The notes below the pieces were generated by a model that was given only the letters and a program-made list of their open reading frames with translations, did not search any database and was not told the DNA's origin. From the IMG/VR virus record IMGVR_UViG_2711768166_000002: a stretch of DNA of 32,271 bases; one strand, written 5' to 3'. Shown one piece after another: positions 11,434 through 28,984 of this stretch (positions within the stretch are counted from its first letter, which is position 1; the number at the start of each line of letters is the position of its first letter). Both the position numbers and the translations under genes were made by a program. The DNA is from a virus (lineage: Duplodnaviria > Heunggongvirae > Uroviricota > Caudoviricetes).

Positions 11434-13569
11434 TTAACTCGGCATTAAGTCTGCCGGTGACTGTGGTGGTGACTGGAATTGCTGTTGTTGTGACTCGGCG
11501 ACATCTTTCAGAAGGCGTATTGCCTCCATCACTGCTTTGTCATCGATGTTTCTGGCTTGAGCCAGTTTATAGACAGTGTTTGCCTGACTCTCCATCGCAT
11601 CCTGCTGGGCAGTAAATGCTTTGATTTGAGTTTGAGCAGTTTCGTTAGTTGCTTTTTGCGCTTCTGCCTGCGCTGCTACCATTTGCGCCTGAGCGAGAAC
11701 CATTTCAGGATTTGGCTGGCTTTGTGCTGCCATTTGCGCCTGTTGAACAATCTGCTGCTCTTTCTCATTGCGTGGTTTTGCAATGCCAGATATCAGCAGT
11801 TGGTTTCGGTTGTACTCTTTGAAGTCATCAAGGCCTTCGCCATCGATATTGTCCAGAATAATACCCTGAATTGCCGGGCGCATTGGGTCTGTTGGAAGCA
11901 TAGAGCTAAGGACATTTGTCAGTACAGAAACCGTTGCATCACGTCGTGCTGTGTAGCTTGGTCCAACATCAACCGTCACATCGTATCGACCGACAGAAAG
12001 GTCATTTAACGCAACAACTGCCCCTGTTTGCCTGTCAACAACCTGTGCGCTCAGGACAGCGATATCATCACTTCCATCTTCGTTAACGATGCGCACTTCA
12101 CGCTCTGAACCGTACACTTCACGAGCCATTGACAGCCATACTTCACCAGCGCGTTTAAGACTTTTCGCCATATTGTCCAGATAGATAAACGAAGCCATAT
12201 CTGCTCTGTTCATCAAGTTGTTAACCGTTTCCTGAGCAATATTACTTGGCATCTGCTGCATGGCCTGACTGCCGCCTGTAACCTCCTGAATATCTGCACT
12301 GGTTTGCTGTAGTAATGCAGCCAATGCCTGATTCATAACCGCAGGCTGTGTATATCCTGCCGGGGTAGCTCCAGCGATAATATTGCCAGATTTATCTCTC
12401 ACTTCGCGCAACGGCAAGAACGCTGGGCGTTTCTTGTTGCGAGCCTCCCAGTGCTTCTCAAGTCCACGAATTTGCTCCATGCCAACTATAGGGATCTGAC
12501 CGGGGTCTTGCGCTGCAGTATCAGCCAGCATTGATACCTGAAGGTTATACAAACGCTGTGGATCCATTGCTTTTGCAATATGTCCTTCGACACGCTCAAT
12601 GTCATCAATGAACCAGCGTTTTCCATAAACCGGGATGAGGGGGATATGCTCACCAGGAATACGTCGAGGTTTCTCAAGGAAACCATCACCATCCACTACG
12701 GATACATACACACGACGGCGCTTCACTGAGCGCCTTGCCACTTCCTGAAATCCAGCTATTGCCAGTTCATCTTCAATATCTTCAACCTGATCACTGTCGT
12801 ATGTTGCAATCTCTCCAGTGATTGGATGTCGATAACTGATGACGTCAACAGACTCTTTACGAACTTCGTAATACTTCGCTATGTAAATAACATCTGCATC
12901 AAACCAGTCATATTCCCAACTGGTCATAGACGTTACATCCAGAGAAGCAGGAGGTTTCTTTCCGTATTCAGCCTCATATTTTTCAGGTGACAACGAATAC
13001 ATACAGAACGCCCACAACGCGTCAGATTTGTCGTACTTCTTAGCGTCAGGGTCAAACCACACAGAGCGCGACGGGTCGTATATTGGTTCAATAGCAATAC
13101 GCTGACGATCGTCCATGGGGTCGTATTCATTGACCAGCATCGACGTCAAACGGAAGCAACCGAAACCACCAGTAGCAGCGTCGTCAAATGCATTATCGCA
13201 AGCCTCACCGCCATCAGTTTCTTCGTAGTCAGCACGGAACAGACCATTTAATTTATTGGCTAACTCTTCGCTTGCCTCTCTGTCACCAGGACGAAACTTA
13301 ACGGTGATTCTGTTATTGCGGTATTCTGCAATGATGCGGTTAAGTTCAGTTGCAACCTTATTGATTTCAAACTTAGGATACTTCTCGAACTGCTCATCAA
13401 GCTTAGTTCCAGCCGCCGTTGCTCCTTCCCATTGACCTCCGGGGACACGAGCAAACCTCGTAGCTTCAATGCACTTTTCGCGCACTTCCTGCTGTGGAGA
13501 ATAGGCGCGGTCAAACCTGAGCATGATCCGCTCATGTTTTTTCTCTAATGTCTCTGCCATGTTTACCAA
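11434..13569 (-). CDS. Portal protein
   Basis: 711 aa. Position after TerL; motif PGEHIPLIPVYG resembles the P22 portal AGEHIPIVPVFG. Confidence 0.9.
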   Translation of the reverse strand: MVNMAETLEKKHERIMLRFDRAYSPQQEVREKCIEATRFARVPGGQWEGATAAGTKLDEQFEKYPKFEINKVATELNRIIAEYRNNRITVKFRPGDREASEELANKLNGLFRADYEETDGGEACDNAFDDAATGGFGCFRLTSMLVNEYDPMDDRQRIAIEPIYDPSRSVWFDPDAKKYDKSDALWAFCMYSLSPEKYEAEYGKKPPASLDVTSMTSWEYDWFDADVIYIAKYYEVRKESVDVISYRHPITGEIATYDSDQVEDIEDELAIAGFQEVARRSVKRRRVYVSVVDGDGFLEKPRRIPGEHIPLIPVYGKRWFIDDIERVEGHIAKAMDPQRLYNLQVSMLADTAAQDPGQIPIVGMEQIRGLEKHWEARNKKRPAFLPLREVRDKSGNIIAGATPAGYTQPAVMNQALAALLQQTSADIQEVTGGSQAMQQMPSNIAQETVNNLMNRADMASFIYLDNMAKSLKRAGEVWLSMAREVYGSEREVRIVNEDGSDDIAVLSAQVVDRQTGAVVALNDLSVGRYDVTVDVGPSYTARRDATVSVLTNVLSSMLPTDPMRPAIQGIILDNIDGEGLDDFKEYNRNQLLISGIAKPRNEKEQQIVQQAQMAAQSQPNPEMVLAQAQMVAAQAEAQKATNETAQTQIKAFTAQQDAMESQANTVYKLAQARNIDDKAVMEAIRLLKDVAESQQQQFQSPPQSPADLMPS

Positions 13570-14975
13570 CCGGAGGATGAGGGAACGTATATTTCAGTTT
13601 CTTCGCGGACCAATGCCGGGCAATGCATACACATCATCAGCGCATCAGCCAGGTTAGGAGATGGAATACCGAGCTTCTGCTTCATTTCGACCTTAGTCAT
13701 AAGCTCCAGCTTCCCGTTGTTATTGAATTTGCGCTGAATCTGCGTCAGTTCTGCAAACAGCTTCTCCAGCATCTTCTCGCCTATCGCTTCTTTGTCGAAA
13801 CTCAGCATGTCGTCGGGGTCTGCATACTCACCGTGAACAACCGCCCGATATGTCAGATACAGCCTGTCAGCCAGCGCGTAATAGAATTGCGCTCGCTTAT
13901 TGCGGAATACATCGCCAATAGTGCGAACGTTGTCGCCCTGCACGACTTCATCAGCCCATGCCCCGGCCTGATACGGTGCATCTTCATCGAATGGCGATTC
14001 GCTGCCCTTGAACATCGTGGCGGTGATTTTCTTACCGGAGAACGCTTCCGTTGTCTGTCTGCGTAGCCCGGCACCAACACCATCACCATCCCACAGGTAA
14101 TGGTCAGCGCCGTCTTCAATCGCCAGCGAAGTAGCCCAGTCAGCACCCTCGTTGATGTCCATCAGCAGGCCTTCGGCAATGCGCTTAACTACCGAACCGT
14201 GACGCGATGCGTAACCTTTAGCATCTGGCCCTGTATCTGACGGGTCATGCGCAGAGACAACCGCGCCTTTCGCTTTCCATCCGAGTTTCTTGTGCGCATC
14301 TGTTGCAGCTTCAAGCCATTCACGTTTGATGATTGCCATATCACTTGCGCTTACTGGCTCACCAAGCCAGATGTGACGATACAGTGTCGGGTTTCTGCGT
14401 TTACACTCTTCCATCTCCAGACGGAGAACTTCAGGAAAGTGCGGGTTGTCGGTGTAGTTCACCGTCAGCAGACAAATATCATCGGGAGGGTTTACTACGA
14501 ATCGCTGATAGGTATCGTCGAGGATGTTTTTCGGGTTGAAGCTCACCCATATTTCGGAAAATGGCTTGCGGATGGTTGGTATCAGGATATCCCATGATTC
14601 CTTCGTTACCGCTTCCGCTTCTTCCACCCAGCAGATATCAATGCCTTCGAGCGATTTAATCTTCGTCGGGTTGTTTTTGATGCCGTAGAACATGAATTCA
14701 GCATTCGTTCCAAGATGACGAATCATGGAACGCTGAATTTCAAACTCAGCCGAATACCCTTCCCGCTCAATGGTATCTTCAAGCAACCGGATTACCGAAT
14801 CGCTGATACTGTTTTGCAGTTCACGAGCGCAGAGTATGCGCACAGGCTGCCGACGCGCCGCTTCAACAAGCAGCCTCGCAATTGCCCATGATTTACCGCT
14901 ACCTCGACCGCCTTTGGCAACTTTGTAGCGATGCGCCTCAATGAACGGTTCAAAGATAGGATTAATCGAGGTCAT
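13563..14975 (-). CDS. Terminase large subunit, Sf6 gp2-like
   Basis: 470 aa. N-terminus MTSINPIFEPFIEAHRYKVAKGGRGSGKSWAIARLL with Walker A motif KGGRGSGKS. Confidence 0.95.
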   Translation of the reverse strand: MTSINPIFEPFIEAHRYKVAKGGRGSGKSWAIARLLVEAARRQPVRILCARELQNSISDSVIRLLEDTIEREGYSAEFEIQRSMIRHLGTNAEFMFYGIKNNPTKIKSLEGIDICWVEEAEAVTKESWDILIPTIRKPFSEIWVSFNPKNILDDTYQRFVVNPPDDICLLTVNYTDNPHFPEVLRLEMEECKRRNPTLYRHIWLGEPVSASDMAIIKREWLEAATDAHKKLGWKAKGAVVSAHDPSDTGPDAKGYASRHGSVVKRIAEGLLMDINEGADWATSLAIEDGADHYLWDGDGVGAGLRRQTTEAFSGKKITATMFKGSESPFDEDAPYQAGAWADEVVQGDNVRTIGDVFRNKRAQFYYALADRLYLTYRAVVHGEYADPDDMLSFDKEAIGEKMLEKLFAELTQIQRKFNNNGKLELMTKVEMKQKLGIPSPNLADALMMCMHCPALVREETEIYVPSSSGW

Positions 14976-15412
14976 TTTCCGAATAGAGTGCTCATCGGTG
15001 ATGTTTCAATCTGAATTGCGCCGCCGTCTTTGCCTGTTAGCTCGTGATCAACCTTGTCGCGCCATTTATCCTTCTGTCGGTTCTTAAGCCAGAAAATGGC
15101 AGCGGTTGTATCAGGCGGGTAATACTTCTCAAGCGGAGTTTCGACAATTCTGTTTTCAATAACACGAATATCGATATCTGGAGCCACGAAGCCCATAGCG
15201 CGTTGATAAAGACGATCACTAACTTCTGCATCAGCGACGGCCTTACCCTTTTTTATGGACTCCGAAAACTCAGGATAATCAAGCTTCCACTTGTTAATAG
15301 TTGACTCACTGACTTCGAAGAAATCAGCAAGCTCTGCATCGGTGTAGCCCAGCAAGCACAGTTTGCGTGCCTGTTCGGCATACGCCTCTTGATACTTTGT
15401 TGGGCGCGCCAT
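14972..15412 (-). CDS. Terminase small subunit; Sf6-like C-terminal domain with a different N-terminal DNA-recognition region
   Basis: 146 aa. C-terminus ELTGKDGGAIQIETSPMSTLFGK matches the Sf6 gp1 C-terminus as recalled; the N-terminal about 60 aa differ. Confidence 0.85.
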   Translation of the reverse strand: MARPTKYQEAYAEQARKLCLLGYTDAELADFFEVSESTINKWKLDYPEFSESIKKGKAVADAEVSDRLYQRAMGFVAPDIDIRVIENRIVETPLEKYYPPDTTAAIFWLKNRQKDKWRDKVDHELTGKDGGAIQIETSPMSTLFGK

Positions 15413-15414
15413 GT

Positions 15415-15657
15415 TTATGCTCCGGTAGTGAACAGGTCTAACGCTTCCTTCGATTTACGCACCGCTTCAAATGTGCGGATCGTGATATCCGAATTAGCGC
15501 CGCCTGACTGGAAGTGAATTTTGAATAGTTCAAGCTTCAGCTCGTCAGTTCCAATGAATTGAAATGCTTCTTCTGCGGCTGCGTTCTGGTTCATGACCAG
15601 TTTGTAAATCTCTAACTGGAATTTCTGTTCTTCAGTCATGGGAATAATCTCTGCCAT
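15415..15657 (-). CDS. Hypothetical 80-aa protein immediately upstream of the small terminase gene (cf. P22 orf80 position)
   Basis: ORF track; GGAG RBS; tight packing against the terminase gene. Confidence 0.55.
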   Translation of the reverse strand: MAEIIPMTEEQKFQLEIYKLVMNQNAAAEEAFQFIGTDELKLELFKIHFQSGGANSDITIRTFEAVRKSKEALDLFTTGA

Positions 15658-15904
15658 TGTTGGCTCCGTTTATCCGTTAAAAGGGATATCAGTTAAGTTA
15701 TCCCGTGTAGGGTATAAGCCATTGTCGAGACCACTCATTGAATGGTCTCTGCAATAACCGATGTCTTTCCATCAGTCCGCCACCACAAAGAATCTTTTTT
15801 GCCATAAGGCAGGAGGTTCATCTTTCAGTGGCTGCCAGTGTTATTTCCCCACTTACTGGCTTGGGTTGTTTCGCTGTACTGCCGTTAATTGGTGAGTCCG
15901 GGGA

Positions 15905-16390
15905 TTATTTCAGTTCGTTACCAGGCATTTCTTTTAGCTCTTTCAAATGACAACGATTGAGACTAAACCACTCCCCGTGCGACCTATAGTTGTAATATTT
16001 TTGGTGCAATTTGGTTTCAAGCTCTCTATCGGCCGGAATCTTTGCAATTAGATTTAGCTTCCCACCACTCATGCGAGATATCTCTGAAATTCGTTTATTA
16101 ACCCTGCGACTAAACCCTATTTTTGTTAGCCCACTATCTTCAGCATGCAGAACGTACACATATGATTTTTGCGAAGCACTAGGTGCGACTTTGTTGTAAT
16201 TAATCATGTCAAACATGAAGCCTTGCTTTAGCAAAGTTTCAAAAAAGATAGAATTAACACACCCATTCCTTCTCAGCTCTGCACTTAGCTTGTCAATTTC
16301 CTCTATGATGTCGCCAGACCCCTTTCCACTTATAAGAAAATCTTGGTACATGCGACCAATTCTTGAGGTAATTTCAACAAAGTTATTCAT
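15905..16390 (-). CDS. T5orf172 (GIY-YIG-like, MUG113) domain protein, 161 aa; accessory gene between lysis and packaging modules
   Basis: C-terminal half YVYVLHAEDSGLTKIGFSRRVNKRISEISRMSGGKLNLIAKIPADRELETKLHQKYYNYRSHGEWFSL fits the T5orf172 pattern (YVYVL..G..KIG.....KR.......ELE..LH.KY..R..GEWF). Visibly AT-rich codon usage compared with the flanking phage genes. Confidence 0.7.
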   Translation of the reverse strand: MNNFVEITSRIGRMYQDFLISGKGSGDIIEEIDKLSAELRRNGCVNSIFFETLLKQGFMFDMINYNKVAPSASQKSYVYVLHAEDSGLTKIGFSRRVNKRISEISRMSGGKLNLIAKIPADRELETKLHQKYYNYRSHGEWFSLNRCHLKELKEMPGNELK

Positions 16391-16534
16391 AGCGTTTACC
16401 TTTTAGAAAGATGAGCCTGTTCGCACAGAAAAGCCGTCCCCGAGATGGTCGCCACCATATACGGCAATTCTCAGGCTCAGCTTTCTGAAAGACTCGGGAT
16501 TGTTACGCGCTGCGATGCGCGGTTTACTGCAGAT

Positions 16535-16560
16535 GTAAAAAAGCCCCGCAAATGCGAGGC
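16535..16560 (-). terminator. Putative intrinsic terminator downstream of Rz
   Basis: Minus-strand hairpin GCCUCGCA/UGCGGGGC followed by UUUUUU (plus-strand aaaaaagccccgcaaatgcgaggc). Confidence 0.5.
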
Positions 16561-16734
16561 TAAATCCTGGTATTTGTAATGACTGGCTCTTATCTCAACG
16601 CAGCCCCTTACCGCGCGCCAGATGCTCAATATCAAGCATCAGCAATGAGATGTTTAATCTGGATTCACTCCAGAAGTGATCATCACCCTGTCTACAGAGC
16701 CAGATGTGAAGGATGATGAGTAAAATTATCGCTA

Positions 16735-17193
16735 TCATCGAAGGCATTGCGTCCTGATGTATTCCTGCAGGTAGTTAACCTGCGCGGTTATCTTGTCGAT
16801 TCCACTTCGGAGACGGTAATAATTGAGTTCAGCATCTGCTGTAAGTCTTGGGCTTTCTCCATCGCCCATGCCGCTGGCTCCGGTCTTTGACTTTGCACAG
16901 GAGGCGGCGACTTGCAGCCGCTTACGCCCAGCAGAAACATCATCACGGAGACTTTCGATAGTCGCGTTAGCATCAGCAAGCTCCTTTGTATATCTGGCAT
17001 CGAGTTCTGCTACATCACGCTGACGCTGCTGCATGTCAGCGATGGTGGCAGTCGCCTGCTTCAGCTCACTGACTTTTTTATCACGCTGTTCTTTGTAGGC
17101 GATGGCGTTATCACGGTAATGATTAACCGCCCATGACAGGCAGACGATGATGCAGATAACCAGAGCGGAGATAATCGCGGTTACTCTGCTCAT
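16735..17193 (-). CDS. Rz: Rz i-spanin
   Basis: 152 aa. N-terminal half [31 protein letters not shown]... is almost identical to lambda Rz as recalled; the C-terminal half diverges. Confidence 0.9.
16788..16973 (-). CDS. Rz1: Rz1 o-spanin lipoprotein embedded in the +1 frame of Rz
   Basis: Embedded ORF with [20 protein letters not shown] lipobox followed by a Pro-rich segment. Start chosen at the internal Met by analogy with lambda Rz1; the ORF track extends to 17000. Confidence 0.7.
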
Positions 17194-17666
17194 ACCTCAA
17201 TCTCTCTGACCGTTCCTCCTGCTTCTTTGAATTTTGCAATCAGGCTGTCAGCCTTATGCTCGAACTGACCATAACCAGCCCCCGGAAGTGAAGCCCAGAT
17301 ATTACTGCAACGGTCGATTGCCTGACGGATATCACCGCGATCAATCATCGGCAAAGCGCCACGCTCCTTAATCTGCTGCAGCGCAACAGCGTCCTGGCTT
17401 TTGGGAGAGAAGTCTTTCAGGCCAAGCTGCTTACGATAGGCATCCCACCAACGGGAAAGAAGCTGGTAACGTCCGGCTGCTGTTGATTTGAGTTTGGGGT
17501 TTAGCGTGACAAGTTTGCGAGGGTGATCTGAGTAATCAGTGAATAGCTCTCCGCCAACAATGACGTCATAACCATGATTTCTGGTTTTCTGCCGTCCGTT
17601 ATCAGTTCCCTCTGACCACGCCAGCATATCGAGGAACGCCTTACGTTGATTATTGATTTCCACCAT
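17190..17666 (-). CDS. R: Endolysin R (lytic transglycosylase)
   Basis: 158 aa, [53 protein letters not shown]..., essentially identical to lambda R as recalled. Confidence 0.95.
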
Positions 17667-17973
17667 CTTCTACTCCGGCTTTTTTAGCAGCGAAGCGTTT
17701 GATAAGCGAACCAATCGAGTCAGTACCGATGTAGCCGATGAACACGCTCGTTATATAAGCGAGATTGCTACTTAGTCCGGCGAAGTCGAGAAGGTCACGA
17801 ATGAACCAGGCGATAATGGCGCACATCGTTGCGTCGATTACTGTTTTTGTAAACGCACCGCCATTATATCTGCCGCGAAGGTACGCCATTGCAAACGCAA
17901 GGATTGCCCCGATGCCTTGTTCCTTTGCCGCGAGAATGGCGGCTAACAGGTCATGTTTTTCTGGCATCTTCAT
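17650..17973 (-). CDS. S: Holin/antiholin S (dual-start MKM motif)
   Basis: 107 aa, [64 protein letters not shown]..., matches lambda S107. 17-nt overlap with R as in lambda. Confidence 0.95.
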
Positions 17974-18782: not shown

Positions 18783-19406
18783 CTAACGTGTGACCGCATT
18801 CAAAATGTTGTCTGCGATTGACTCTTCTTTGTGGCATTGCACCACCAGAGCGTCATACAGAGGCTTAACAGTGCGTGACCAGGTGGGTTGAGTAAGGTTT
18901 GGGATTAGCATCGTCACAGCGCGATATGCGGCGCTTGCTGGCATTCTTGAATAGCCGACACCTTTGCATCTTCCGCACTCTTTCTCAACAACTCTCCCCC
19001 ACTGCTCCGTTTTGGCAATATCAACCGCCCGACCTGTACCGTGGCAATCTCTGCATCTTGCGCCCGGCGTCGCGGCACTACGGCAATAATCCGCATAAGC
19101 GAATGTTGCGAGAACTTGCAGTACCTTTGCCTTAGTATTTCCTTCGAGCTTTGCCACACCCCGGTATTTCCCCGATACCTTGTGTGCAAATTGCATCAGA
19201 TAGTTGATGGCTTTTTGTTTGTCATTCTGGCTGAGTTCGTGCTTACCACAGAACGCAGCCATTCCAAATCCGGCTTGTGATTGCGCCATCCCCATAGCAG
19301 CCATCACATCAGTACCGGAAAGAGAGTCAGAAGCCGTAGCCCGTGGTGAGTCGCTCATCATCGGGCTTTTTGGCGAATGAAATTTAGCTACGCTTTCGAG
19401 TCTCAT
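18783..19406 (-). CDS. Q: Late-gene antiterminator Q
   Basis: 207 aa, [70 protein letters not shown]..., matches lambda Q as recalled. Confidence 0.95.
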
Positions 19407-25752: not shown

Positions 25753-26403
25753 ATGAAAACTCAATTGATGGGAGAGCGCATTCGCGCTCGGAGAAAAGAA
25801 CTCAAGATCAGGCAGGCCGCACTTGGAAAGATGGTCGGCGTGTCTAATGTTGCCATATCTCAGTGGGAACGCTCTGAGACAGAGCCAAATGGAGAGAATC
25901 TTCTCGCCCTGGCTAATGCGTTGAAGTGTTCCCCTGACTATCTGATGAAAGGAGAGGAAAGTCTTTCAAACATTGCCTATCACAGTAGGCATGATCCAAG
26001 AGGGTCATACCCTCTGATTAGCTGGGTGAGCGCAGGATGCTGGATGGAAGCTGTAGAACCATATCATAAGCGTGCAATAGATAACTGGTACGATACAACC
26101 GTAGACTGTTCAGACGATTCGTTTTGGTTGGACGTGAAGGGAGACTCAATGACGGCTCCGGCCGGTCTCAGTATCCCTGAAGGAATGATAATACTCGTCG
26201 ATCCTGAAGTAGAGCCGCGTAACGGGAAACTGGTAGTTGCAAAGCTCGAAGGAGAAAACGAGGCAACTTTCAAGAAGTTAGTTATTGATGCAGGCAGGAA
26301 GTTTCTAAAACCACTTAACCCACAATATCCGATGATCGAGATCAACGGGAACTGCAAAATCATCGGCGTAGTTGTCGATGCAAAACTAGCAAACCTTCCA
26401 TAA
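25753..26403 (+). CDS. c2: C2 prophage repressor (P22 immC type, LexA-like autocleavage domain)
   Basis: 216 aa, MKTQLMGERIRARRKELKIRQAALGKMVGVSNVAISQWERSETEPNGENLLALANALKCSPDYL..., near-identical to P22 C2 as recalled. Confidence 0.95.
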   Translation: MKTQLMGERIRARRKELKIRQAALGKMVGVSNVAISQWERSETEPNGENLLALANALKCSPDYLMKGEESLSNIAYHSRHDPRGSYPLISWVSAGCWMEAVEPYHKRAIDNWYDTTVDCSDDSFWLDVKGDSMTAPAGLSIPEGMIILVDPEVEPRNGKLVVAKLEGENEATFKKLVIDAGRKFLKPLNPQYPMIEINGNCKIIGVVVDAKLANLP

Positions 26404-27402: not shown

Positions 27403-27873
27403 ATGACAAAATCATGGAGCGTACCTTTTCCTGAATCAGAAACTGAACATGATGGAATGCCTGTTTTCTGGAGATTCCAAGCGACAGTTGAAGAAGATGG
27501 GATCAAAATATTCGCACTTCAATATATAGCTTTTCATCAGACAGAGCATTATGCATGGTTGGTTCCTGCGCATTGGATTGTTAATTTTAAACCAGCACCA
27601 AATCAGTGGTTACAGGAATGGAAACAAAGGAGAAATAGATATGCAATTAAGAAAGTAGCAAAAAATGCAGAAAGATCTTTTGCATTCCCAACGAAGAAAC
27701 TTGCCATTGAAAGTTTATTGCGCCGGAAGAAATACCATTTGATGCGAATCAAACAAGATTTAGCTGTTGTATCAACTCTTGTTGATGGGATGAAGAATAT
27801 TGATACATCAACACCAGATATTGAATATAACTTTGGACACAACCAAGAAACAGAAAATTGGGTGTTTTATTAG
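27403..27873 (+). CDS. Hypothetical AT-rich accessory protein (156 aa), Trp/His-rich N-terminal half and basic C-terminal half
   Basis: ORF track; same translation-initiation context as the preceding gene; no recognisable family. Confidence 0.6.
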   Translation: MTKSWSVPFPESETEHDGMPVFWRFQATVEEDGIKIFALQYIAFHQTEHYAWLVPAHWIVNFKPAPNQWLQEWKQRRNRYAIKKVAKNAERSFAFPTKKLAIESLLRRKKYHLMRIKQDLAVVSTLVDGMKNIDTSTPDIEYNFGHNQETENWVFY

Positions 27874-28015: not shown

Positions 28016-28984
28016 ATGAGTGAAGTAACAGATTTAGTTGTTATTGAAAAAGCAAATGCAATGACTGTATTTCAGTCTGCCGACCAGATTGAAGAAATCC
28101 TTCAAAAGGTTGAACGTGAAGTTATGTCCTTTGTGCCTGATATCACAACGGCAAAGGGCAGAAAGGAGATCGCTTCTCTGGCGTATAAAGTTGCGCAGAC
28201 GAAAACATATCTCGATGGTCTTGGCAAAGACCTTGTTGCTGAACTGAAGGAAATTCCAAAGCTAATTGATGCCAACCGCAAGACAGTGCGCGATCGCCTT
28301 GATGAACTGAAAGCCAAGGCGCGCCAGCCTCTTACTGATTATGAGGAAGAACAGGCGCGGATTAAAGCCGAAGAAGAAGCTAAGGCAGCAGCTGAAGCTC
28401 TCGCAAAGCAAATTGAGTCTGACCATGAAATAGCGATTTTGATGGATCGCGAATTTGACCGCCAAAGAGAAGAGGCAAGACTCAAAGCGGAGCAGGAAAA
28501 GCGAGAGCATGAAGAACGCTTACAAAGAGAAGCTGAAGAGAAAGCCAGAGCTGAAGCCGAAGCAAAGGCAAAAGCCGAAATTGAAGCAGCAGCAAGGCGA
28601 GAAGCAGAAGCTAAGGCCGCAGCGGAACGTGCAGAGCGTGAACGCATTGAAGCCGAGCAACGAGCACAGCGCGAAGCAAAAGAGGCAGCAGAACGAGCTG
28701 AAAGAGAAAAGCAGGCGGCAATTGAAGCAGAACGCCGAAAAGCACAGGAGGAGGCTGAACGAATCCGGCGCGAGGCTGAAGCAAAAGAGCAAGCCAGAAT
28801 AGCAGAAGAAAAAAGAATCAAGGACGAAGAAGAGCGTAGAGCAAAGGATAAAGCTCACCGGAAAGAAGTAAATAACAAAATACTTGCTGACCTTATCAAG
28901 GTTGGCGCACCAGAAGATGTTGCTAAAAATATCATAACAGCCATCGTAAAAGGCGAAGTATTCGCAACAAAAATAACCTACTAA
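28016..28984 (+). CDS. Coiled-coil protein with a long Ala/Glu/Lys/Arg-rich low-complexity central region (TolA-domain-II-like composition)
   Basis: 322 aa. GGAGG RBS. Central region of about 175 aa is AEAKAKAEIEAAARREAEAKAAAERAERERIEAEQRAQREAKEAAERAEREKQ-like repeats. Confidence 0.65.
   Translation: MSEVTDLVVIEKANAMTVFQSADQIEEILQKVEREVMSFVPDITTAKGRKEIASLAYKVAQTKTYLDGLGKDLVAELKEIPKLIDANRKTVRDRLDELKAKARQPLTDYEEEQARIKAEEEAKAAAEALAKQIESDHEIAILMDREFDRQREEARLKAEQEKREHEERLQREAEEKARAEAEAKAKAEIEAAARREAEAKAAAERAERERIEAEQRAQREAKEAAERAEREKQAAIEAERRKAQEEAERIRREAEAKEQARIAEEKRIKDEEERRAKDKAHRKEVNNKILADLIKVGAPEDVAKNIITAIVKGEVFATKITY

Follow-up and report, generated by a model that had tools for sequence, protein, structure and literature searches.

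Phage genes that encode a T5orf172 domain are regarded as putative homing endonucleases whose binding module stands at the end opposite the nuclease, and they are found most often near terminase genes, in 35% of neighbourhoods (PMC10448857). One of these proteins, Odn, is a domesticated anti-satellite nuclease whose activity depends on a conserved glutamate (PMC10448857). Here we analyse a gene of this kind in a 32,271-nucleotide (nt) stretch of viral DNA, the IMG/VR record IMGVR_UViG_2711768166_000002, which we call the window and which is a P22-like temperate phage genome with its virion genes on the minus strand. The gene (15905..16390, minus strand) lies between the lysis and the packaging genes and encodes a protein of 161 amino acids (aa) with a C-terminal nuclease-type domain.

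The likeness to the ICP1-like T5orf172 endonucleases and Odn (Barth et al., PMC10448857, PMC8263062) concerns both architecture and setting, as the window protein also joins a T5orf172 nuclease to another module at the opposite terminus, and its gene is also free-standing, lies beside terminase or essential genes and is present in only some close relatives. Moreover, the conserved glutamate is needed for Odn activity and E140 is invariant in the window family. The ICP1-like proteins, however, carry CapR, DUF723 or DUF4397 zinc-finger, or RepA_N DNA-binding domains, are usually larger and occur in multiple copies per genome, whereas the window protein has an unrelated three-helix domain of 70 aa, is single-copy and is always found in one and the same cassette.

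The Seg proteins of phage T4 cause localised marker exclusion between related phages. Together with I-TevI they belong to the same catalytic superfamily as the window protein, with a matching Tyr/Tyr(Lys)/Arg spacing that comes from a weak alignment; their domain order is the opposite, the nuclease being N-terminal and a long DNA-binding region C-terminal, and their second motif is Y-I-G where the window family has K-I-G. SNIPE/PD-lambda-1 likewise has a C-terminal GIY-YIG-type nuclease, and takes its specificity from N-terminal adaptor regions, not from the nuclease domain (PMC13190303). Unlike the window protein, SNIPE is membrane-anchored, contains DUF4041, is far longer than 161 aa (its catalytic glutamate stands at position 414) and is produced constitutively by the host.

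Closer to the window are the Salmonella phages epsilon34 (gp68), g341c (gp64) and NM-3 (an open reading frame, ORF), which carry the same protein (100% identity) in the same position after Rz and below the same upstream terminator and leader. A distant member, HK106 gp64 (31% identity), shares this position, the terminator and the leader. The rha gene of P22 (orf201), the Rha gene of Sf101 and hkbK of HK620 stand in the same terminator-leader-ATG framework with the same downstream flank, exchanged with the nuclease coding sequence for coding sequence (CDS), while the proteins themselves are unrelated, having a Phage_pRha or KilA-N DNA-binding fold as opposed to a GIY-YIG-type nuclease.

With somewhat less than even confidence, we favour the reading that the gene encodes an endonuclease whose expression is late and depends on Q, whose action is selfish or competitive, of a homing-like kind, and which does not serve prophage immunity. 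As a homing endonuclease it would be a putative one.

Identity and composition of the nuclease gene

The gene is real, correctly delimited and already annotated in public phage genomes, yet uncharacterised. The RefSeq label for epsilon34 gp68 and g341c gp64 is "GIY-YIG nuclease family protein", and our literature search turned up no experiments on members of the 161-aa family. In those parts of the epsilon34 genome paper that a term search brings up, gene 68 is left unnamed, and the discussion of late-operon variability deals with the lysis genes and the ant moron only (PMC2629481).

In Pfam the 161-aa protein matched MUG113 (PF13455, E 4.2e-13, 50.1 bits against a cut-off of 22.3, residues 90-154) and T5orf172 (PF10544, E 1.1e-9, 39.2 bits against a cut-off of 20, residues 77-154), while residues 1-76 had no Pfam match. 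The PHROGs family phrog_4284, of unknown function there, covers the whole protein (E 1.4e-75), with weaker, domain-level matches to families named endonuclease or homing endonuclease; NCBIfam has no model for it. Judged by its sequence, it is a phage T5orf172 protein of an established domain family with a family-specific N-terminal domain.

The CDS has a GC content of 38.7% (38.9% at third codon positions) in a window of 46.9% GC, which places it among the lowest 2.7% of 486-nt windows, and Rz, R, terS and terL have 47-51%. Since both intergenic flanks of the CDS are ordinary in this respect (47.7% and 46.6%), the compositional foreignness is confined to the nuclease CDS. The preliminary description of the window, made from the letters and a list of ORFs, had proposed this ORF (which does begin with ATG), a C-terminal T5orf172-type domain, an uncharacterised N-terminal region of about 70 aa and a composition more AT-rich than that of the flanking genes, and all of these were confirmed, the domain by both profiles above their curated cut-offs.

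Catalytic-type residues and predicted structure

A profile search of 1.84 billion representative proteins (threshold E<=1e-3) recovered 17,130 proteins via the nuclease domain, and full-length relatives were only a handful; a collection of 5.8 billion proteins contained 14 clusters. Across 17 full-length relatives, down to 24% identity, the residues M1, Y79, K90, I91, G92, R100, E125, L128, H129, E140, W141 and F142 are invariant. Y79 is followed after 11 positions by K90 and after a further 10 by R100, then by H129 and the distal E140, and the spacing of the first three equals that of Y6, Y17 and R27 in I-TevI. These are also the residues on which hhalign sets them, in a weak alignment (E 0.041, probability 1.3%). 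The catalytic-type constellation Y79, K90, R100, H129 and E140 is intact, and endonuclease activity is predicted from it.

The AlphaFold 2 model, with a mean predicted local distance difference test score of 82.6 and a predicted template modelling score of 0.53, describes a soluble protein made of a helical bundle (N-terminal helices 3-21, 25-41 and 47-68) and a C-terminal alpha/beta domain with a beta-beta-alpha-beta-alpha core. Foldseek at E<=1e-3 matched this model to 30 predicted viral structures named GIY-YIG, MUG113, T5 Orf172 or BRO, and to no entry of the PDB, so that the structural expectation of the preliminary description was borne out among predicted viral folds and not among PDB structures. 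In a profile search of PDB sequences the GIY-YIG domains of UvrC and BH0048 appeared only at E ~0.3, which is not significant. A GIY-YIG-type fold is therefore suggested by predicted structures only.

The N-terminal domain is particular to this family. Searched alone against the phage collection and the 5.8-billion-protein collection, it had no homologues outside the family, it shows no sequence relation to the Rha or KilA-N proteins that occupy the same slot in other phages, and its structural matches are generic three-helix bundles only. It probably supplies targeting or partner binding.

One slot with interchangeable coding sequences

Comparison with related phages revealed a fixed order of framework elements, namely Rz, a 50-aa ORF, the terminator, a leader of ~150 nt with the ribosome-binding site, the cargo CDS, a conserved segment of 136 nt, a second insertion point at 15758/15760 and the DUF2560 gene. 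In place of the nuclease CDS, exactly from ATG to TAA, Sf101 has an unrelated Rha CDS, with flanks that are 94-98% identical. The slot is occupied by Rha in CUS-3 and phiv205-1, by rha and orf25 in P22, by a KilA-N protein in HK620 (hkbK) and Emek, by two other ORFs in Huey and by a transposon in SEN22, while Sf6 lacks the nuclease sub-slot and has gp66 at the second insertion point. The variable accessory slot that had been supposed for this position is thus present, with Rha, KilA-N, gp66, other ORFs or a transposon as its content in relatives.

All relatives of the nuclease follow the lysis genes and precede a small terminase gene (in HK106, the HNH-cos region) by 0.1-1.3 kb, and the phages that carry them have several unrelated terminase types; the window itself differs from epsilon34 in the downstream packaging module. 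The noncoding DNA described around the gene was found on the upstream side at 16391-16594, and beyond it 16595..16747 is not noncoding, being the conserved 50-aa ORF, for which the Pfam search gave no match.

Several smaller observations concern the same slot. The second insertion point, downstream of the nuclease gene, is empty in the window; in relatives it holds gp66 and other ORFs, and Sf6 gp66 is a Gp49-type protein that is annotated as 'anti-CRISPR' in phage Huey. An ORF remnant of 35 aa (15698..15805) matches the N-terminus, as annotated in epsilon34, of ST64T orf118. The CDS is also bracketed by a 13-nt inverted repeat (15814-15826 / 16406-16418, 92% complementary), the upstream arm of which lies inside the leader hairpin; this may be chance or the trace of a second leader-like element. 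Finally, an 'HNH homing endonuclease' label within the slot (phiv205-1, 173-613), which would suggest a homing hot-spot, proved on opening the phiv205-1 record to belong to a 146-aa small terminase homologous to window 14972..15412; vB_EcoP-611R6 and 683R2 carry the same label.

A terminator and structured leader shared by unrelated cargo

On the coding (minus) strand, a hairpin with an 8-bp stem (16561..16542, 6 G-C pairs) followed by TTTTTT forms a good intrinsic terminator, and the annotations of epsilon34 and HK106 give the same hairpin as a rho-independent terminator. The terminator-like hairpin of the preliminary description is therefore a terminator; it lies upstream of the nuclease gene, as a framework element of the slot that is shared with Rha-carrying relatives. 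Its stem covaries across phages, with compensatory changes in 5 of the 8 pairs.

The terminator and a leader of ~175 nt (16386-16561) are conserved far beyond the nuclease cargo. A 191-nt query found the leader in 179 phage records, including Stx-converting, Salmonella, Klebsiella, Enterobacter, Hafnia, Erwinia, Cronobacter and Actinobacillus phages, and in the records inspected it stands ahead of Rha, KilA-N or this nuclease. With an nhmmer profile, the leader was found once in the window, upstream of every compared member of the 161-aa family (49-100% identity, and HK106 at 31%) and upstream of rha in P22, Sf101 and phiv205-1, and at none of ~40 loci that share the T5orf172 domain only. One Klebsiella phage has the leader element ahead of Rha outside the lysis region.

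The leader RNA folds with a z-score of -3.7 relative to shuffled sequences. When the structure folded from the window was imposed on 13 diverse sequences, 83.7% of cells were paired, compared with 40-50% when the partners were slid, and there were 19 compensatory pairs, as against 4-12 in the slid controls and more than in any of 500 shuffles; this covariation test comprises 13 related sequences only, one of which (the window) supplied the structure. Most of the covariation lies in the terminator stem and in a long irregular hairpin (~16400-16491), the base of which pairs, in the predicted fold, with part of the Shine-Dalgarno sequence (~16399-16403). Rfam gave no match to the leader at gathering thresholds, with a single chance-level match to RcsR1 (E 0.71). 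The known prophage small RNAs (sRNAs) AgvB and AsxR were considered and set aside, as they lie downstream of PR' and not at the leader, and a preprint on the Pas sRNA does not mention Rha, KilA, lysis, spanin or terminase.

Public annotations begin several of the cargo ORFs inside the leader, for example at a GTG start that gives 'VRQAHFLKGKDAM...', and the annotated start of P22 rha/orf201 (record positions 776-849), 'VLASLGG...NAMNELI', also falls inside it. The conserved ATG at the leader end is more likely to be the true start of the cargo, which suggests that the true products are shorter, e.g. ~178 aa instead of 201 for P22 Rha. We regard the terminator-leader cassette common to Rha, KilA-N and T5orf172 cargo as a by-product of this analysis that is more original than the nuclease gene itself.

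Distribution and selection

As had been anticipated, the nuclease gene is sporadic and not a core gene, and its Pfam match is significant. Of 5426 complete E. coli genomes, 58 carry the CDS, each in a single chromosomal copy and 54 of them at 99% identity or more, and it occurs in 5 of 366 related phage records. By comparison, 2655 of the same E. coli genomes match parts of the 1077-nt region, and the Sf101-type Rha CDS is present in 526, with an identity spread of 80-100%. A search of species-representative genomes yielded relatives only in an Erwinia prophage (59% identity) and on one contig from a metagenome-assembled genome. The CDS stays 99.0-100% identical across mosaics in which Rz is ~90% and the DUF2560 gene 80-100% identical.

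In the 15 CDS alleles from 30 loci on viral contigs, 14 polymorphic sites were synonymous and 4 nonsynonymous, and the resulting low ratio of nonsynonymous to synonymous polymorphism (pN/pS ~0.07) indicates that the protein is under purifying selection. One allele (IMGVR_UViG_2778261301_000001, 3501-3983) has a premature stop at W141, within the invariant G-E-W-F motif, and the leader of that locus has diverged too (82.8% identity). In addition, the locus has decayed in a degraded, cryptic prophage on a Logan contig (SRR17171683, 6001-6498), where deletions have joined pieces of YbcO, Rz and the nuclease C-terminus into an ORF of 165 aa adjoining integrase and torS.

A proposed late selfish or competitive nuclease

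A simple consensus scan of 15300-17300 detected no sigma-70-like promoter on either strand, where 3.0 were expected from shuffled sequences. The nuclease gene is co-directional with the late operon, and no good terminator was found downstream of it on the coding strand, the only good one being upstream. Since only Q-modified polymerase would be expected to pass this upstream terminator and the gene runs in the direction of the late operon, it is predicted to be silent in the lysogen.

In the reading that we favour, the nuclease gene would belong to a set of cargo genes that replace one another in a portable late-operon cassette (terminator, leader and CDS), which enterobacterial temperate phages have between their lysis and packaging genes. 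It would be transcribed only when Q-modified RNA polymerase passes the upstream terminator in lytic growth, and the leader hairpin that overlaps the ribosome-binding site may further limit its translation; with transcription so restricted and translation so damped, the protein would be absent from the lysogen and act late. Its targets would be co-resident related genomes, or parasites, that lack the gene. The nuclease could replace rha- or kilA-type alleles in a homing-like manner, or cause their marker exclusion, via the conserved flanks, or it could attack a competitor as Odn does.

We read a nuclease of the late operon as selfish or competitive because of the T5orf172 precedent, that is, the putative homing endonucleases and Odn (PMC10448857). 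By analogy, its rarity, its near-clonality, the exact swap with Rha and a nearly identical CDS in diverged backgrounds would form the signature of such an element, and the features expected of a homing gene that we found are the homing-associated domain family, the sporadic presence, the neighbourhood from Rz to DUF2560/terS and the domain order.

Several points weigh against this reading. We did not find the spread to multiple sites and the frequent decay that go with homing genes: 29 of the 30 copies are intact and 1 is decayed, and every relative (31-100% identity) lies in the same terminator-leader cassette, at the same position and in one copy per genome, which looks like a long-resident cargo lineage and not like a promiscuous invader. 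Identical flanks would let ordinary homologous recombination move the cargo without any nuclease, and an identity gradient around the CDS, considered as evidence of co-conversion, was discarded as non-diagnostic, since it is to be expected wherever loci are picked by the identity of their CDS. The N-terminal domain lacks a zinc finger (only one cysteine is conserved) and a helix-turn-helix match and is roughly neutral in charge, and 161 aa is unusually small for a sequence-specific homing enzyme. The lack of a promoter is the outcome of a simple consensus scan only, and cleavage, target and expression are all things that we infer from the sequence. Exclusion of competitors during lytic growth may be at work.

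A bolder formulation, which we hold to be doubtful, makes the terminator, the ~175-nt leader and the CDS an undescribed portable and gated late-gene cassette. The leader would represent a new class of cis-regulatory RNA that limits potentially toxic cargo (Rha, KilA-N or the nuclease) to Q-dependent late expression, and the nuclease would be a lytic weapon against co-resident phages or satellites, with the three-helix domain as its adaptor.

Alternative functions

The preliminary description had taken the gene for a classic moron that might act as an abortive-infection (Abi) or superinfection-exclusion (Sie) effector. Such an effector would shield the lysogen, or the infected cell, in that it breaks down incoming phage DNA or kills the cell. 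The extra DNA and the atypical composition of a moron are indeed present, whereas a promoter of its own (by the consensus scan) and a downstream terminator are not. The single-protein system SNIPE/PD-lambda-1 has as its effector a GIY-YIG domain at the C-terminus, which is toxic when unleashed (PMC13190303), and the cargo is AT-rich, sporadic and prophage-borne. In PADLOC, however, the protein matched only the candidate system PDC-S57 (E 4e-4, 18 bits, residues 74-145), weakly and over the nuclease domain alone, and PDC-M64B (E 0.034), with no match to SNIPE/PD-lambda-1; DUF4041 was not found in it by Pfam, and no transmembrane segment or match to another established defence model was seen. 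No PADLOC-listed defence family includes it. With no promoter-like site, a terminator that insulates it from transcription that is not antiterminated, a co-directional position in the late operon outside the region expressed in lysogeny, and an exact alternative in Rha under the same leader, a defence role is quite unlikely, the Abi or Sie proposal is weakly supported, and as a lead for a defence gene the nuclease gene is weak.

The exchange with Rha, CDS for CDS, and the same leader ahead of Rha, KilA-N and the nuclease invite instead the view that the protein is an analogue of its slot-mates, that is, a late DNA-binding or regulatory (antirepressor-like) protein whose T5orf172 domain mainly binds DNA. 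Its structural neighbours include BRO and "T5 Orf172 DNA-binding domain" proteins, and P22 rha affects phage growth in hosts deficient in integration host factor (IHF), according to a passage citing that work in PMC4936722. We consider this view rather unlikely, because the invariant Tyr, Lys, Arg, His and Glu under strong purifying selection point to retained chemistry, and the N-terminal domain is unrelated in sequence to Rha or KilA-N proteins. Least probable, and in our estimate very unlikely, is an accessory nuclease for late DNA metabolism (degradation of host DNA, trimming or debranching of concatemers, or help to the terminase). The gene does lie directly upstream of DUF2560, terS and terL, with which it is predicted to be expressed, and the HK106 homologue adjoins an HNH gene of the HK97 gp74 type, whose product is a terminase accessory factor. 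Against such a role, only ~1% of E. coli genomes have the gene although about half carry parts of the slot, Sf101 has Rha between the same lysis and DUF2560/terS flanks, so that the nuclease is not required for packaging, and the gene co-occurs with several unrelated terminase types.

Feature coordinates and neighbouring genes

The features of the locus and of its wider setting in the window are collected in Table 1. Two further ORFs, 27403..27873 (plus strand, 156 aa) and 28016..28984 (plus strand, 322 aa), lie downstream of the cI-like repressor gene and co-directional with it, the former where the window is richest in AT (36.6-37% GC). Pfam and PADLOC gave no match for either. Their position is rexAB-like, and they are better placed than the nuclease gene as prophage-expressed defence genes.

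Table 1 Features of the window, in order of position.
Feature	Coordinates	Strand	Details
terL	13563..14975	minus	
terS	14972..15412	minus	
DUF2560 gene (P22 orf80 / HK620 hkbM homologue), downstream boundary of the slot	15415..15657	minus	PF10834, E 2.6e-42
Conserved downstream framework segment, common to Rha-, Sf6- and Huey-type slots	15760..15904	minus	
T5orf172/GIY-YIG-type CDS, 161 aa (epsilon34 gp68 / g341c gp64 family)	15905..16390	minus	ATG start
T5orf172/MUG113 nuclease-type domain, codons 77-154	15929..16162	minus	Invariant Y79, K90-I-G92, R100, E125, H129, E140-W-F
Family-specific N-terminal three-helix domain, codons 1-70	16181..16390	minus	Helices 3-21, 25-41, 47-68
Conserved structured leader	16391..16534	minus	Small hairpin ~16506-16521; long irregular hairpin ~16400-16491
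Intrinsic terminator, upstream of the cargo gene	16535..16561	minus	8-bp G+C-rich stem, 4-nt loop, T6 run
Conserved 50-aa ORF (epsilon34 gp67 / Sf6 gp65 homologue)	16595..16747	minus	Overlaps the end of Rz
Rz spanin gene, upstream boundary of the slot	16735..17193	minus	PF03245, E 4.3e-40
Lysis genes S, R, Rz, Rz1	16735..17973	minus	
Rz1, embedded in Rz	16788..17000		
Q	18783..19406	minus	
cI-like repressor	25753..26403	plus	

Implications

If the nuclease is active and expressed late, it would provide a compact enterobacterial example of the selfish or competitive T5orf172 nucleases, work on which has so far dealt mainly with the vibriophage ICP1. It resides in genetically tractable P22-like and lambda-like phages, which would permit tests of allele replacement at mosaic joints. 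A shared terminator-leader cassette would explain why Rha, KilA-N and T5orf172 genes are swapped exactly at their start and stop codons, and the leader, a candidate new regulatory RNA, bears on the long-unexplained function of P22 rha.

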